From IMG/VR virus record IMGVR_UViG_2563366883_000010, positions 1 to 12,178 of that record: DNA of 12,178 nucleotides; one strand, written 5' to 3'. The stretch comes from a virus (taxonomy: Duplodnaviria > Heunggongvirae > Uroviricota > Caudoviricetes). Every line of letters begins with the position of its first letter. The stretch's first letter is position 1. The position numbers and the translations under genes are program-made. Positions 4,492 to 10,913 of this stretch are shown here, in pieces. The notes below the pieces were generated by a model. That model ran no database searches and was not told the DNA's origin. It was given only the letters and a program-made list of their open reading frames with translations.

Positions 4492-4518
4492 GAACAACGT
4501 GGAACAACCACGAACAAA
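4492..4518 (-). promoter_or_regulatory. Phased direct repeats, 3 x GAACAA at exact 10-bp spacing (TTGTTC on the coding strand); candidate regulator-binding array
   Basis: GAACAA at 4492, 4502 and 4512. The reverse complement matches 22 of 25 positions with the array at 10869-10893. Confidence 0.4.
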
Positions 4519-4536
4519 TAATTTACAAAAAATGAC

Positions 4537-4560
4537 AAAAAGCCGGATTGCTCCGGCTGT
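4537..4560 (-). terminator. Rho-independent terminator (minus strand)
   Basis: Minus strand reads ACAGCCGGAGCAATCCGGCTTTTT: 7-bp stem AGCCGGA/TCCGGCT, 4-nt loop, then a T-run. Sits 9 nt after the stop of the 74-aa gene. 23 of 24 identical to the element at 4891-4914. Confidence 0.6.
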
Positions 4561-4568
4561 ATGCGTGC

Positions 4569-4793
4569 TCAGTCCCTGATCCCTTTCAGAAATTCTATCA
4601 ATGCATCTATCTGTTCAGGATTTACCGCCAGCATTTCACCGGACAGAGCACATCTCACAAAACCATGCTGATCCTTTTCAATCAGTGCGCCCGTCTCCAG
4701 GAATGCGCGGTAATCATTGATGCTCATCGTCTCCATGTTGTCAGCATGGTATTTATCACGCTGTTTTAATATCTCATCAAATTTCATCGGCAT
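4569..4793 (-). CDS. Hypothetical protein (74 aa), cargo gene
   Basis: ATG at 4793 with SD GAGGA 7 nt upstream; the ORF is bracketed by two near-identical terminators. No family recognised. Confidence 0.6.
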   Translation of the reverse strand: MPMKFDEILKQRDKYHADNMETMSINDYRAFLETGALIEKDQHGFVRCALSGEMLAVNPEQIDALIEFLKGIRD

Positions 4794-4890
4794 TGTTTTT
4801 TCCTCTGTTGTGTCTGTTTGTTTCAGATAGTAACTATGCCTGACCGTGACGAAAACCCGGTAATGCGCCATACCGTTTCAACTGGTGCAA

Positions 4891-4914
4891 AAAAAGCCGG
4901 ATTTCTCCGGCTGT
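4891..4914 (-). terminator. Rho-independent terminator (minus strand), twin of 4537-4560
   Basis: AAAAAGCCGGATTTCTCCGGCTGT; same stem with one loop substitution and a T-run on the minus strand. Sits 4 nt after the stop of the PerC-like gene. Confidence 0.6.
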
Positions 4915-4917
4915 TGA

Positions 4918-5190
4918 TTAGCTGTCTGGGTAATTACGCCATATTTCATCGCTTACACCATCTATACCCATTTCAGCATAAGTGCGATCTACTGCCTTTC
5001 TCAGGTCTCCGTAATTATCCGGCGGCTCCGGTGGCCTCTGTGCCTTTCTGGAACATTCCAGCCGTCGCATCGTAACCTGATGCCGTTCCTTGTCTGTCTC
5101 CACCAGCAGCATGACTTCACCCCATCGCGCCGCCGCCCTCCGGTAAAAGCCTTTCGCCTCGAGTTCTTCCGCTATGCGGTCATGTACCAT
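4918..5190 (-). CDS. PerC-family transcriptional regulator-like protein (90 aa)
   Basis: Start at ATG 5190 (MVHDRIAEELEAKGFYRRAAARWGEVM...) with a GGGGGTG SD directly after the SSB stop. The LE-KG-(F/W)-RRAA-RW signature is what I recall for PerC/Pch activators. The longer ORF to 5310 overlaps the SSB gene and is rejected. Confidence 0.55.
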   Translation of the reverse strand: MVHDRIAEELEAKGFYRRAAARWGEVMLLVETDKERHQVTMRRLECSRKAQRPPEPPDNYGDLRKAVDRTYAEMGIDGVSDEIWRNYPDS

Positions 5191-5200
5191 CGCCACCCCC

Positions 5201-5611
5201 TCAGAACGGAATACCGTCACCGTAAGGGTCATCGCCTCCCGCTGGTGGCTGATTACCCTGTGTGCCTGTGGTTTTGCGTCTGTTCCCGCCAGGACGTGCC
5301 GCACGGGCACTGATTACGCTGTCTGCAATAACCTGATAACCCTGCCGCGTTTCCCCGTTCTGTCCGGTCCACTGGCTGACCTGCATCGTGCCGGATACGC
5401 TGGCAACGTCGCCTTTTTGATGTTTAGCCAGGAAGTCGGCCTGCTTACCAAATGCGATGACCGATAGCCATAACGTCGCCTGTCCGTCCTGTGCCTGACT
5501 GCATGGCAGTGATACCGCCATACGCGCCAGCGTCATCGGTGTGCCCTTGCTGGTCTGTTTTACCTGCGGGTCGTCCACCAGCCGACCGTAAGCCGCTATC
5601 TGTGCTGTCAT
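5201..5611 (-). CDS. Single-stranded DNA-binding protein (SSB family)
   Basis: 136 aa; the OB-fold core (WLSVIAFGKQADFLAKHQKGDVASVSGTMQVSQWTGQNGETRQGYQV) is co-linear with E. coli SSB; Gly/Pro/Gln-rich linker and acidic tail ending DGIPF (compare SSB DDDIPF). ATGA overlap with the upstream ORF. Confidence 0.8.
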   Translation of the reverse strand: MTAQIAAYGRLVDDPQVKQTSKGTPMTLARMAVSLPCSQAQDGQATLWLSVIAFGKQADFLAKHQKGDVASVSGTMQVSQWTGQNGETRQGYQVIADSVISARAARPGGNRRKTTGTQGNQPPAGGDDPYGDGIPF

Positions 5612-5853
5612 GATTCCACCTCTCCGGTTTTAACGTTGATGGTTGTTACCTGTTCCGCTTCGGCAATCTCCCGTTCTGTCAGCGTGGCAAAGTTTGCCGC
5701 CGTCGTGGTCATGAATGCGCTTATCAGTTCGGGATGTGCTTTCGCGTATCCTTCCCCGGCGTTGCGGTCGATGATTTTTATCGCCACCCTCAGCCAGTGT
5801 TCTGTCAAATCAAGGGCGTGAGATTGTGGTTTTTTGGCGTGCTTCGTTGTCAC
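5608..5853 (-). CDS. Hypothetical protein (81 aa), first gene of the SSB / PerC-like operon
   Basis: GTG start at 5853 with GAGG 9 nt upstream; its stop overlaps the SSB ATG (ATGA). No family recognised. Confidence 0.5.
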   Translation of the reverse strand: MTTKHAKKPQSHALDLTEHWLRVAIKIIDRNAGEGYAKAHPELISAFMTTTAANFATLTEREIAEAEQVTTINVKTGEVES

Positions 5854-5904
5854 AGGCTTTACCTCACAGCAATAAAATAAAATTTTTGCATTTCAACCCT
5901 TCAC

Positions 5905-6127
5905 CTGTTCACCTTTTGCAATTTTCCCTTTTTATTCATGATGTTAAGGGGTGAACAGTTTCACAAAAACTATTCACCAACTGTTCACCACTGTTCACCC
6001 TTAAAGCTCAATAAAGAATCAAAAAGGTGAACAGTGAATAGTTTGGTGAACAGTTCATAAATAACTGTTCACCCTATAATATACTGATATAAAAGACATT
6101 TATTGCAGGGTGAACAGTGGTGAACAG
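5905..6127. repeat. Iteron-type replication origin: nine copies of GGTGAACAG (both orientations) plus an AT-rich segment
   Basis: Full 9-mers at 5905, 5950, 5981, 5991, 6026, 6045, 6065, 6109 and 6119 (start positions), with partial copies at about 5972 and 6035; AT-rich stretch 6074-6104. Begins 14 nt after the replication-protein stop. Confidence 0.75.
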
Positions 6128-6140
6128 TTATTCCATAAGT

Positions 6141-9713: not shown

Positions 9714-9717
9714 TAAC

Positions 9718-9897
9718 GTGTCAACACACAAAAACGAAAGGCGTGGTAATCCTCCGTTCCAGTTCCGTTTAGATCCTGACTTACGGGAAAAGATGGAAAA
9801 GGCACAACAACAGGACGGCGATGATTCTCTTGCTGCCTGGATAAAGCGAATAATCCGCAAAGAATTACAGCAACGCGGCATAGAACCCAAAGGATAA
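9718..9897 (+). CDS. Arc/Mnt-like ribbon-helix-helix transcriptional regulator (59 aa)
   Basis: GTG start with GAGG 10 nt upstream; PFQFRLDPDLREKMEKAQQQDGDDSLAAWIKRIIRKELQQRGI is co-linear with P22 Arc (PQFNLRWPREVLDLVRKVAEENGRSVNSEIYQRVMESFKKEGRI). Confidence 0.7.
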   Translation: MSTHKNERRGNPPFQFRLDPDLREKMEKAQQQDGDDSLAAWIKRIIRKELQQRGIEPKG

Positions 9898-9954
9898 AAA
9901 CTATCAGCGCCGTGGTGTGAGGTATTACGGCGCATTGCTATGCAGGACAACACA

Positions 9955-10128
9955 ATGACCGATAAAGAATTGACCAAAACATTATCACCGGCACGGAAAA
10001 GACGGCGCAGAAAGATAGAGCATGAATCAGAAAGATTCGCGCCATGTGCTTTTGCCCTTGAGCAATTCCTTAAAGAGTACAGGGAAAAGCGCTCATTGCA
10101 GGTATGGCAACGAACTGAACCAGACTGA
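9955..10128 (+). CDS. Hypothetical small basic protein (57 aa), downstream of the RHH gene
   Basis: ATG 9955 with AGGA 7 nt upstream (the track start at 9940 has no SD); contains RKRRRRK; followed by a plus-strand terminator. No family recognised; it may not be a real gene. Confidence 0.3.
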   Translation: MTDKELTKTLSPARKRRRRKIEHESERFAPCAFALEQFLKEYREKRSLQVWQRTEPD

Positions 10129-10222
10129 TTGCATTGCCCACCAGCCTGATAGCGGCTATCATCCCCGTGCTTATGTTTGGGATCACACACACAAACGGCG
10201 CAGCGTGTTATCTGTTCAGAAA

Positions 10223-10251
10223 GGCGGCTCCATTTCGGGGCCGCTTTTTTT
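10223..10251 (+). terminator. Rho-independent terminator closing the RHH transcription unit
   Basis: GGCGGCTCC-atttc-GGGGCCGC (8-bp stem with one G-U pair) followed by TTTTTTT. Lies between the convergent RHH unit and alpA. Confidence 0.6.
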
Positions 10252-10397
10252 ATGCCTGAAAAACCCCAATTTTGTGGTTTTCCAGTCTCACCAGGGCGAA
10301 CGAATCCCCGCCCACGTTCTGGCGTATATTCAATCTTCATGGTTATAGCTCTGTGTTCAGATGATTGATGTGTGGCGGCTGCGTGCCGCCAGCGTGA

Positions 10398-10586
10398 TTA
10401 ATGAACTGCCTTGCAGCTATCCTTCCAGGCCAGAACCTCGGATAAAGACCAGCCAACGGAACGACCGCCAAGTTTACGACGTGATGGGAATTGTCCGGCC
10501 TTTTCCAGGCGGTAGCGGCATGAGCGGCTAAGGCCTGTTAGCTTTTCGCATTCTTTTTCACGTATAAACCGATCAGTGCTTAACAC
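10398..10586 (-). CDS. alpA: AlpA-family phage transcriptional regulator (62 aa)
   Basis: LTGLSRSCRYRLEKAGQFPSRRKLGGRSVGWSLSEVLAW matches the AlpA/MerR-like HTH signature. GTG start with AAGGGGG SD; an in-frame stop lies just upstream. Confidence 0.85.
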   Translation of the reverse strand: MLSTDRFIREKECEKLTGLSRSCRYRLEKAGQFPSRRKLGGRSVGWSLSEVLAWKDSCKAVH

Positions 10587-10647
10587 TATTGCCCCCTTTC
10601 GTTTCTTAAAGAGTTATTTCGTGTTCTATTGCGTTGGGATGTGTCTG

Positions 10648-10676
10648 ATTGTGTCAGGATGATTCAGAGTTGGCAA
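10648..10676 (-). promoter_or_regulatory. Candidate sigma70 promoter for alpA
   Basis: On the minus strand TTGCCA (10676-10671), 17-bp spacer, CACAAT (10653-10648), about 60 nt upstream of the alpA GTG. Hexamer match only. Confidence 0.25.
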
Positions 10677-10746
10677 ATGTTGAGGCCGCATGGTTTACAG
10701 AAAGAGGAATAATCAGGATAAAATCATTTAAATTCATGTTAATACA

Positions 10747-10777
10747 AAGGCATAAAATATTGTTTCATGCCTTTTTT
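10747..10777 (+). terminator. Hairpin with T-run in the int-alpA spacer (possible bidirectional terminator for int)
   Basis: AAGGCAT-13 nt loop-ATGCCTT followed by TTTTTCT on the plus strand; on the minus strand an A-run precedes it and TTGTATT follows. No plus-strand gene reads into it. Confidence 0.35.
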
Positions 10778-10868
10778 CTCGCTATTTAAAGAGTGATTCG
10801 CTAGTGTATAAAAAACCAGTAACACATTAAAAATCAGCTACTTATAAATCTGTACACTTTTTCGCCTC

Positions 10869-10913
10869 TTGTTCGTAGTTGTTCCGCATTGTTGCTCATT
10901 GTTGCACGTTGTA
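10869..10913 (+). repeat. Phased array, 5 x TTGTT(C/G/A) at exact 10-bp spacing, with an adjacent palindrome CGCATA-tccag-TATGCG (10920-10936)
   Basis: TTGTT at 10869, 10879, 10889, 10899 and 10909. The first 25 bp match the reverse complement of 4493-4517 at 22 of 25 positions. Lies 45-90 bp after the int stop. Confidence 0.45.

Follow-up and report, generated by a model that had tools for sequence, protein, structure and literature searches.

Phased TTGTTC arrays in a capsid-forming phage-inducible chromosomal island as probable AlpA operators in excision, alpA, and capsid control

The stretch of viral DNA analyzed here (12,178 nucleotides, hereafter the window) is an EcCIEDL933-type cf-PICI, short for capsid-forming phage-inducible chromosomal island. 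Its major capsid gene (3120..4277, minus strand; Pfam Phage_capsid, E = 2e-61; RefSeq start from L001) heads an operon with the order capsid-protease-portal-connector-HNH(-terS-terL). The int gene (10961..12178, minus strand; Pfam Arm-DNA-bind_3 and Phage_integrase) encodes a tyrosine integrase of the P4 type that carries an arm-binding domain at its N terminus, and alpA (10398..10586, minus strand; Pfam Phage_AlpA, E = 5e-18) encodes a 62-aa winged-helix protein. The int, alpA, replicase, and capsid genes share one strand and one order throughout the loci examined. The comparison set comprised about 80 related islands or loci, about 75 of which cover the int-alpA spacer; the complete islands used were L001 and L207, the latter being EcCIEDL933, the prototype with an experimental study.

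Two arrays of short direct repeats, R and L, are of key importance here. Array R (10869..10918, plus strand) lies in the 374-bp int-alpA spacer, where it starts 48 bp past the int stop and ends about 280 bp from the alpA start. It consists of five units (TTGTTCGTAG, TTGTTCCGCA, TTGTTGCTCA, TTGTTGCACG, and TTGTATCTGT), whose cores read TTGTTC, TTGTTC, TTGTTG, TTGTTG, and TTGTAT in order, each exactly 10 bp apart. Array L (4488..4538, minus strand) precedes the capsid operon and consists of three exact units (TTGTTCGTGG, TTGTTCCACG, and TTGTTCACTG; 4517->4488) with an upstream extension of two weak units, namely TTGTC at 4538-4534 and TTGTA at 4528-4524 (10/11-bp spacing), a stretch that is kept in sister islands.

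The original prediction had noted the resemblance between the left site (minus strand, 4517->4493; TTGTTCGTGGTTGTTCCACGTTGTT) and the right site (plus strand, 10869-10893; TTGTTCGTAGTTGTTCCGCATTGTT), and we recovered them as an inverted pair with 22 of 25 positions identical (25 nt, 88%). In some sister islands (L042 and L058), the first 25 nt of array R even equal array L at all 25 positions. The 10-bp spacing, with three copies at the left and five at the right, was confirmed as well, as were the proposed positions between int and alpA and about 215 bp before the capsid gene (215 bp separate the end of the left site from the RefSeq start at 4277). A search for the phased pattern TTGTTS-N4-TTGTTS-N4-TTGTT (at most one mismatch) returned the L and R sites as sole matches in the window and 0 matches in 200 dinucleotide-preserving shuffles of it. 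By itself, the hexamer TTGTTC shows no enrichment (9 occurrences versus 8.4 expected); the array signal is the phasing, not the hexamer word.

Upstream of array L, an intrinsic terminator hairpin (4541..4558, minus strand; AGCCGGAGCAATCCGGCT followed by a T run) ends a small ORF (4569-4793), and a twin terminator is found at 4895-4912, after perC. Terminator-like sites number 5, against 0.5 expected in shuffles, and these two are predicted to isolate the capsid operon from upstream transcription. Downstream, a candidate weak promoter of the capsid operon (4445..4472, minus strand; TTTACC, 16 nt, TATTCT), read by eye rather than hit by a tool, begins 19 bp past the last array L unit and aligns with TTTACA-16-TATGTT in sister islands. 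A consensus scan of 4250-4950 gave no sigma-70-like promoter, which would fit an activator-dependent promoter. The small ORF, whose product had been put forward as an RHH protein, has no family match; it is 42-43% identical to homologs both in an array-sharing island and in an arrayless island, and thus its divergence does not track the array.

In complete islands, the array family comprises four sites, namely L, R, and two further arrays outside the window, next to both att ends and in direct orientation. Array R is oriented opposite to the other three, and the unit TTGTTCCACG is found again at all four sites. The notion, suggested alongside the AlpA reading, that crossover between the inverted copies inverts or deletes the 6.3-kb segment for replication and regulation can be given next to no credence. 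The pair is indeed inverted, nearly identical, and flanks a functional block; however, no inverted or deleted L-R segment occurs among about 80 loci, the arrays contain no dyad-symmetric core, R differs among islands in sequence and in unit number (3 to 7) with L constant, the same arrays stand in direct orientation at the two att ends, and no second recombinase is encoded. The core and the integrase arm sites of the actual recombination site are found elsewhere.

At that site (L001 and L207), the att core is 9 bp long, and the att-arm arrays (P and P') lie at distances of 86-120 bp and 115-140 bp from it. Each adjoins a doubled 12-mer (GGTGTAGTCACT or GGTGTAGTTAAT), at core distances of about 90 and 144 bp. 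In total, the 12-mers make up four sites of like orientation, which gives each integrase protomer one. Both variants occur with the same AlpA allele, and which variant is present agrees with the N-terminal subtype of the integrase in 35 of 35 loci, with the TTGTT cores unchanged. Owing to this covariation, we assign the doubled 12-mers to the integrase arm domain. Other integrase clades carry other doubled motifs, one of which is the published motif of helper-embedded PICIs (HE-PICIs), whose core spacing is similar (PMC10111431). In L167, where the integrase is 68% identical, a new doubled motif (TGTGTGGTCAG) is found, but the arrays are still TTGTTC.

The same data make it improbable that the arrays are themselves arm-type sites of the integrase N-terminal domain, placed also upstream of alpA and the capsid operon. 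Two arrays do sit in the att arms, an integrase accompanies the arrays in all loci, and adjacent direct repeats about 10 bp apart are possible for such sites (lambda P'1-P'3). On the other hand, the doubled 12-mers already fill this role, and it is they that switch with the arm-domain subtype and that differ in L167. Furthermore, no role is known for arm sites at distances of 1.4 kb and 7.5 kb from the core, and runs of five to seven units are atypical.

When the related islands were searched for the motif, as the original prediction had proposed, both positions proved to be conserved in about 80 islands. All loci that cover the int-alpA spacer (about 75) have array R, in 25 sequence variants of 3-7 units in which unit cores are kept, spacers vary, and length changes solely by whole 10-bp units. 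Array L stands before every HK97-type capsid gene in loci with the window-type AlpA (29 loci by automatic calling, plus L077 with a degenerate middle unit), and with capsid modules just 63-75% identical, array L and its upstream flank are the only alignable part of the query. Arrays R, P, and P' also occur in islands without a capsid module or small ORF, and PerC is missing from some array-bearing islands. In short, the arrays track neither integrase subtype, replicase type, PerC, nor capsid module.

The independence from the replicase is best seen at the origin. Nine exact TGTTCACC/GGTGAACA octamers at 5906..6126 form a cluster that is probably the replication origin of the primase/D5 helicase; the TGTTCACC octamer is also the P4 iteron. 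Origin iterons change with replicase type (TGTTCACC with primase/D5, GCGGGTTAT with DUF927, and CCCACTTT with RepA), whereas the TTGTT arrays remain unchanged across all three kinds of island, and the octamer cluster is thus separate from the TTGTT system. The arrays could in principle be replication iterons bound by the primase-helicase, making up a split origin like P4 ori and crr, since P4 has two distant iteron regions and TTGTTC shares TGTTC with the octamers, but their constancy across replicase types renders this very unlikely.

We now turn to AlpA, whose predicted structure (pLDDT 87; order beta-alpha-alpha-beta-beta-alpha) has the fold of an excisionase-type winged helix. The top structural match of the model is the GIsul2 excisionase 8C3T (TM 0.79/0.86, rmsd 1.2 A). 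The next matches are MerR-type domains, the RdfS excisionase, and TorI, and there is a sequence match as well. PICI AlpA switches on its own promoter and not Pint, and its overexpression leads to int-dependent excision and replication (PMC6092414), while an EcCIEDL933 alpA mutant is neither induced nor transferred (10.1101/2022.09.08.507074). In PICMI, AlpA is necessary and sufficient for excision, and its model is TorI/Xis-like (PMC10803314). Recombination directionality factors have binding sites in the form of direct repeats spaced by one helical turn (PMC7498355), and the arrays are, as originally stated, typical in form of the binding arrays of Xis-type winged-helix proteins.

Taken together, the TTGTTC arrays are probably operator arrays for AlpA, with four-site control of excision, alpA, and the capsid operon. 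AlpA and the integrase family co-occur in all loci, and AlpA is therefore assigned by elimination and analogy, with the mosaic islands excluding the other candidate binders. PerC is ruled out by the persistence of the arrays in islands devoid of it, and the small ORF product by islands that have R, P, and P' but no small ORF. The earlier AlpA-box reading is thus favored by conserved positions, the excisionase fold, and the exclusion of rivals, with binding by AlpA as its inferred part; it had missed the att-flanking arrays and, consequently, a role beyond transcription control. Because the same arrays flank the attachment site, AlpA looks like a dual excisionase/regulator rather than a transcription factor only.

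Mechanistically, AlpA monomers would bind head to tail, one per helical turn, on TTGTTC(C/G)NNN units, with TTGTTCCACG as the presumed best unit, and would bend the DNA. At the att arms, beside the paired integrase arm sites, the role of AlpA would be that of a recombination directionality factor in excision. Array R, upstream of alpA, may serve the published positive autoregulation. Array L, after two terminators and before the weak putative promoter, would turn on capsid and packaging gene expression after induction of alpA by the helper phage.

Two alpA promoter candidates with sigma-70-like consensus matches (10742-10715, TTAACA-16-TATCCT; 10676-10648, TTGCCA-17-CACAAT; both minus strand) are no more numerous than in shuffles. 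They lie on the alpA side of array R at 125-190 bp, which is far for a simple activator site and, together with the inverted orientation of R, speaks against this mechanism. The same holds for PICMI, where AlpA expression left satellite gene expression unchanged (PMC10803314). For the capsid operon, the by-eye promoter is one such point. Another is the lack of TTGTTC arrays in the capsid leaders of distant cf-PICIs (Rosenbergiella, Citrobacter, Erwinia, and vB_KppS-Ant), and therefore the wiring is lineage-specific. A third is that cf-PICI capsids are reported to form at a significant level without induction (10.1101/2025.02.11.637232), and hence the capsid operon is not strictly AlpA-dependent.

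Further points against AlpA come from islands with divergent proteins. Array L is kept where the AlpA-like protein is merely 30-60% identical: it is intact in L111 and has 4 substitutions in 19 bp in L010, versus 1 in about 215 bp of flank. L167 (AlpA 64% identical) is without array R and has an array downstream of alpA instead. The persistence of array L beside divergent AlpA-like proteins could be explained if another factor bound the arrays (a nucleoid protein of the host, another protein of the island, or the helper-phage inducer of alpA) and reached the alpA region, capsid operon, and att arms directly, a scenario that we consider unlikely. It would suit the position of array R upstream of alpA and the 10-bp phased TTGTTC arrays in many unrelated viral contigs, which show that the motif is not exclusive to this AlpA. 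Against it, the arrays are unlike the consensus sequences of IHF or Fis sites, and no small DNA-binding gene other than alpA was found to be common to all array-bearing islands. PICIs are induced by several different helpers (PMC6092414), which speaks against one fixed site for a single helper protein. Finally, sites next to the integrase arm sites and on their core side occupy the classical position of an element-encoded directionality factor (PMC7498355).

Returning to AlpA as the probable binder, several known systems offer a comparison, with Apl, Cox, Vis, and RdfS each binding att as well as promoters (PMC7498355, PMC11963761). Apl (coliphage 186) and Cox (P2/HP1) are small winged-helix proteins that, like the proposed AlpA, are dual directionality factors and regulators, and their operators consist of 5-7 direct repeats one helical turn apart, located at the attachment site beside integrase arm sites and at the promoter region (PMC7498355). 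The arrays here resemble these in form, unit number, and double location. Unlike the Apl/Cox operators, however, they are found on both att arms and before a capsid operon; by sequence, AlpA falls into a different family (Pfam PF05930), and its published effect on its own promoter is activation, whereas the action of Apl and Cox is repression of lytic and lysogenic promoters that face each other.

Vis, encoded by the satellite phage P4, is an AlpA relative that is needed for excision and that bends att DNA and represses int (PMC7498355, PMC6092414); its relationship to PICI AlpA proteins is only remote (PMC6092414). P4 and the island share the same gene neighborhood, with a P4-type integrase and a primase that uses the TGTTCACC octamer at its origin, but P4 has no capsid operon of its own. 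Vis also regulates the P4 late promoters.

RdfS of ICEMlSymR7A is a winged-helix excisionase that acts on attP and its own promoter, coupling excision with transcription (PMC11963761), and its structure (8DGL) is similar to the AlpA model (TM 0.66). RdfS sites have no consensus motif and depend on oligomerization of RdfS via an extra N-terminal helix, whereas we find a clear repeated pentamer and an AlpA model without that helix. The AlpA of Pseudomonas aeruginosa, a Q-like antiterminator, shares the name and is also a positive regulator recognizing a promoter DNA element, but it is much larger (DNA-contact residues up to 142), has a 21Q-like fold, and binds as a single molecule to one GGGACG element between -35 and -10 (PMC9371919). 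It is unrelated to the 62-aa AlpA, and an antitermination model by this route has no support.

The doubled TGTATTGC motif of HE-PICIs is a tandem 12-mer in two copies of like orientation, which flank the attP center at distances of about 80 and 130 bp (PMC10111431). Lying just upstream of int, it has the same layout as the doubled 12-mers here and is their counterpart, not that of the TTGTT array. Whether integrase or AlpA binds it was left open, and it was stated not to have been found in other PICIs (PMC10111431). The covariation in 35 of 35 loci gives the doubled motif to the integrase arm domain, and equivalents do exist in other PICI clades.

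Two phased arrays of TTGTT-type units lie in inverted orientation in the window, as the original prediction had described them. Array L, before the capsid gene (4488-4538, minus strand), has three exact TTGTTC units at 4517-4492, and array R, between int and alpA (10869-10918, plus strand), has five units starting from 10869. All of these are spaced by 10 bp, and the two arrays are identical at 22 of 25 positions. Upstream of its exact units, array L has two more weak ones, TTGTC and TTGTA, at 10 and 11 bp. The bare TTGTTC hexamer occurs at chance frequency in the window; the phased pattern has no other match there and appeared in 0 of 200 shuffles. 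Operators of the Xis type, such as those of lambda Xis, Apl, Cox, Vis, and L5 Xis, consist of at least three head-to-tail direct repeats placed 10-11 bp apart, on which the protein binds cooperatively and bends the DNA; at both R and L the spacing is exactly 10 bp. By analogy, the phased arrays are probably operator arrays of a dual-purpose excisionase/regulator, which would be a known kind of element.

The window is a capsid-forming phage-inducible chromosomal island (cf-PICI). All its real genes are on the minus strand, namely a P4-type integrase gene with an Arm-DNA-bind_3 domain (int, 10961-12178), alpA (10398-10586; Pfam Phage_AlpA, PF05930), a zone of Ash/Icd-like ORFs between alpA and the replicase, a DUF4222 gene, the primase/D5 helicase gene (6141-7973), and, after a cluster of TGTTCACC octamers (5906-6126), the genes for SSB and then PerC. 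These are followed by a small ORF without a family match (4569-4793) and a late block encoding capsid, prohead protease, portal, head completion protein, connector, and HNH. A cf-PICI is characterized by int, alpA, and a replicase in combination with genes of its own for an HK97-type capsid, protease, portal, connectors, HNH, and terminase, lacks tail and lysis genes, and measures about 15 kb. Escherichia coli SHP24 carries the same element (98% identity, ~15 kb) inserted in tqsA, with terS and terL at the end, and the window and the prototype EcCIEDL933 have 100% identical capsid leaders. The Ash/Icd-like zone also gives Rfam matches at gathering score on the minus strand at 8796-8883, 9274-9361, 9383-9459, and 8951-9000 (two C4 antisense RNAs, isrK, and a C4 a1/b1 target), and it looks like a P1/P4-type RNA immunity module. 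The PerC-family protein (4918-5190, minus strand; Pfam E = 6.5e-45) is missing in several sister islands, which have a ProQ/FinO gene in its stead; a PICI PerC homologue has been reported to silence LEE1 expression (PMC11773190).

Conservation was followed in about 80 related islands, comprising nine E. coli or Shigella loci fetched singly and 68 IMG/VR loci chosen by an encoded AlpA 89-98% identical to that of the window; a capsid-protein search of genome contigs yielded five usable relatives. The positions of both arrays are conserved among these islands, which rules out the recent local duplication without conserved position that would have spoken against a functional motif. Array R is found in every locus covering the int-alpA spacer, with three to seven units and in 25 sequence variants. 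These variants agree in their TTGT cores but not in the four to five spacer bases, and they differ in length solely by whole 10-bp units. All loci that have an HK97-type capsid gene also have array L, even where capsid identity falls to 63% (in one island, L077, the middle unit is degenerate), and in diverged capsid modules the array and its upstream flank are the sole part of a 243-bp query still aligning. The suggestion that the two arrays are paired recombination sites, on the other hand, did not survive the comparison: gene order and strand are identical in all of the ~80 loci, with no rearranged form. Inverted or deleted forms that would mark them as crossover sites are likewise absent from these loci, and the real att site lies elsewhere.

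Complete islands have two more arrays of the same kind just outside the window. The int-side att array, with four units, stops ~55 bp short of the int start; the far-end att array, with three, lies near the other end of the island. In the complete island L001 and in EcCIEDL933, these arrays are found 86-140 bp from the core on both arms (P and P'), each adjoining a doubled 12-mer, and the int-side array sits between the core and the arm sites. In SHP24, the two island ends have a common 9-bp core, TGCTGTTAT. Read on the minus strand, the excised form is arranged as array and doubled 12-mer, ~75 bp, core, ~86 bp, array and doubled 12-mer, and int. The unit TTGTTCCACG is present at all four array sites, all four arrays are found in EcCIEDL933, and array R is inverted relative to the other three. 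An array inside att and beside integrase arm-type sites is what an Xis-type operator would show, and both L001 and EcCIEDL933 have this arrangement.

The doubled 12-mers themselves come as GGTGTAGTCACT or GGTGTAGTTAAT, each in two copies, and both arms of one island carry the same variant. L001 has them at 15850-15873 and 949-972, at distances of ~90 and 144 bp from the core, and EcCIEDL933 and some 35 further loci have them likewise. We take them to be integrase arm sites, because the variant and the N-terminal subtype of the integrase agree in 35 of 35 loci (one AlpA allele is found with either variant) and because further integrase clades have different doubled motifs at the corresponding position: GGTRTATCACTC in L010, TGTATAAACA in the packaged cf-PICI Escherichia phage vB_KppS-Ant, TGTGTGGTCAG in L167, GGTATCCTA in L013 and L014, and TGTGTATTGCA in L111. 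The L111-type motif is already in the literature for helper-embedded PICIs, where it lies ~81 and 132 bp from the attP centre and has no binder assigned (PMC10111431). The doubled motif, reported there solely for helper-embedded PICIs, extends to other PICI clades. In CP4-57 of E. coli K-12, from which the name AlpA originates, AlpA is divergent, and a doubled motif precedes intA with no TTGTT array.

Several proteins could in principle bind the TTGTT arrays. The integrase would do so if the arrays were its arm sites, but they do not change with the integrase subtype: islands with either N-terminal subtype, and also L167 with its 68%-identical integrase, have identical TTGTT cores. PerC can be discarded since the arrays are unaffected by its presence, with L004, L005, L006, and L010 having arrays and no perC. 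The original prediction had also named an RHH protein, which corresponds to the small ORF at 4569-4793; this ORF matches no family, is 42-43% identical both to its counterpart in an island with the same array and to that in one without, and is missing in islands retaining the R, P, and P' arrays. The R and att arrays are also unaffected by the presence of the capsid module. This leaves AlpA, which is the only small DNA-binding protein that all these islands share. The AlpA model is a winged helix (pLDDT 87) whose best structural match is the GIsul2 excisionase 8C3T (TM 0.79/0.86), with RdfS and TorI matching as well, and alpA thus provides the small excisionase-type winged-helix protein expected on the same element. 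By elimination and analogy, we consider AlpA the likely binder of the arrays. The reading as AlpA boxes is therefore the best supported one as regards conserved positions and the excisionase-type fold, while binding by AlpA itself is the part that we infer. No island among the ~80 combines this AlpA with an unrelated integrase, and the two proteins are thus inseparable by co-occurrence. Antitermination by Pseudomonas aeruginosa AlpA was set aside as a model, that protein being unrelated, larger, and acting at a single binding site (PMC9371919).

A role of the arrays as replication iterons of the P4 ori/crr type can be dismissed as well. The probable replication origin consists of the nine exact TGTTCACC/GGTGAACA octamers at 5906-6126, which occur in both orientations immediately past the primase/D5 helicase gene. 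The iteron type of sister islands depends on the replicase (TGTTCACC with primase/D5, GCGGGTTAT with DUF927, and CCCACTTT with RepA helicase), whereas the TTGTT arrays do not switch.

Array R lies 48 bp past the int stop, with the two promoter-like sites of alpA following at 125-190 bp, a distance and orientation unlike those of a simple activator site. Its position upstream of alpA would suit a dual-function factor and agrees with published autoactivation (PMC6092414); by analogy with EcCICFT073, where this autoactivation was shown, array R may be its site. L167, where AlpA is 64% identical, has no array R but an array immediately downstream of alpA in its place, and it retains the P-arm and L arrays. 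Two further elements occupy the int-alpA spacer. A perfect 16-bp palindrome, CAGTATGCGCATACTG (10928-10943), is located between the int stop and array R and is missing in several sister islands. At 10746-10777, GGCAT and ATGCC form a hairpin with a 13-nt loop and a T run on the plus strand, its pairing being kept via compensatory changes.

Array L directly follows an intrinsic terminator, with a twin terminator after perC, and its position upstream of the capsid operon and behind these two terminators would suit the promoter-side function of a dual-purpose factor. A consensus scan found no sigma-70-like promoter in the array L region. By eye, a candidate can be placed at TTTACC-16-TATTCT (4472-4445), 19 bp past the last unit, and sister islands align TTTACA-16-TATGTT with this candidate capsid promoter. 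The L units would then centre near -57, -67, and -77, a usual location of an upstream activator. Where PICIs combine the same int and alpA with other late modules, the late genes are preceded by another conserved element and not by a TTGTT array; this element, TTTGCAA...ATTGCACAAAATGCAAT, is found in L005 (3695-4109), L008 (2788-3041), L007 (1958-2158), and L009 (2083-2283). In more distant cf-PICIs (Rosenbergiella, Citrobacter, Erwinia, and vB_KppS-Ant), the capsid leader is without TTGTTC units, and the wiring of the capsid operon to the motif is thus specific to the E. coli/Shigella lineage. At this position, the Rosenbergiella, Citrobacter, and Erwinia islands have a TTACCC-like phased stretch that overlaps a terminator stem and is found with three different regulators; we do not count it as an array. 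A significant level of tail-less cf-PICI capsid formation has been reported in the absence of induction (10.1101/2025.02.11.637232), and capsid operon expression can therefore not be strictly AlpA-dependent. The capsid leader also has two blocks on the minus strand that are kept from E. coli to the Rosenbergiella, Citrobacter, and Erwinia cf-PICIs, namely TTTTGTAAATT.T at 4519-4531 (nearly every column invariant in a nine-sequence alignment) and GTGG..C..AGACG...GCCAC at 4416-4439. The AGGA of the capsid ATG is buried in a terminator-like hairpin (4285-4314, minus strand) of 11 pairs and a seven-T run, which ends directly in front of that ATG; the L004/L006-type leader does not share this hairpin.

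AlpA acts as the master switch in phage satellites of Gram-negative bacteria, and our literature search found no paper describing these arrays or AlpA DNA sites in PICIs. Published views of the protein are split. In E. coli PICIs it is an activator not acting on int: AlpA of EcCICFT073 activates its own promoter and not Pint, its overexpression leads to int-dependent excision and replication (PMC6092414), and an EcCIEDL933 alpA mutant shows neither induction nor transfer (10.1101/2022.09.08.507074). In PICMIs, by contrast, AlpA is an excisionase, necessary and sufficient for excision with transcription unchanged, and its structural model resembles TorI and Xis (PMC10803314). A four-site layout with AlpA as binder would reconcile both views. 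Recombination directionality factors bind head-to-tail to direct repeats one helical turn apart (PMC7498355), and Apl, Cox, Vis, and RdfS are known to bind both att and promoters (PMC7498355, PMC11963761), a class that the four-site layout fits. The map, built on the unit TTGTTCCACG, is the first candidate target map for this regulator; it offers concrete, mutable targets for both views, predicts AlpA as a dual-purpose factor of the Apl/Cox/Vis type, and yields a testable claim on the timing of the cf-PICIs' own capsid production. As a by-product, the doubled 12-mers at PICI att sites are assigned to the integrase arm domain. Should the arrays prove to be ordinary AlpA operators, they would add a useful annotation and not a new principle. 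A bolder scheme, which we deem very improbable, has AlpA filaments nucleating at the arrays and physically joining the two att arms with the capsid promoter and the control region of alpA. Since R runs opposite to L, P, and P', antiparallel pairing or looping over 1.4-7.5 kb would be possible, and one cooperative switch would bring about excision, alpA self-amplification, and capsid synthesis together. In a variant of this idea, array R would fire an antisense transcript into int, fixing directionality.

Returning to AlpA as the likely binder, array L is kept alongside AlpA-like proteins of only 30-60% identity. It is intact in L111, and in L010 it has four changes in 19 bp vs one in the ~215-bp flank. 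Its persistence could reflect a shared TGTTC core specificity, since vB_KppS-Ant has TGTTCATC arrays upstream of the gene for the same 94-aa regulator; alternatively, it could stem from recent recombination. At 7100-7330 of vB_KppS-Ant (L023), long 10-bp tandem runs precede this AlpA-like gene, with four copies of ATTCAACAGC, three of ACACGTAACG, and then five to six of the TGTTCATC type, which points to the use of phased arrays in a second AlpA clade as well. A pattern scan of viral contigs, in which the mosaic islands L111 and L167 were found, had many unrelated phased TTGTTC arrays among the matches listed. An element consisting of TAGTTGTTCCCGTTGTTCCCAGTTGTTCCGAGTTGTTCC and then inverted GGAACAAC is shared in near-identical form by L092, L094, L096, L103, and other unrelated, GC-rich IMG/VR contigs; phased TTGTTC(C) arrays thus serve other mobile elements too.
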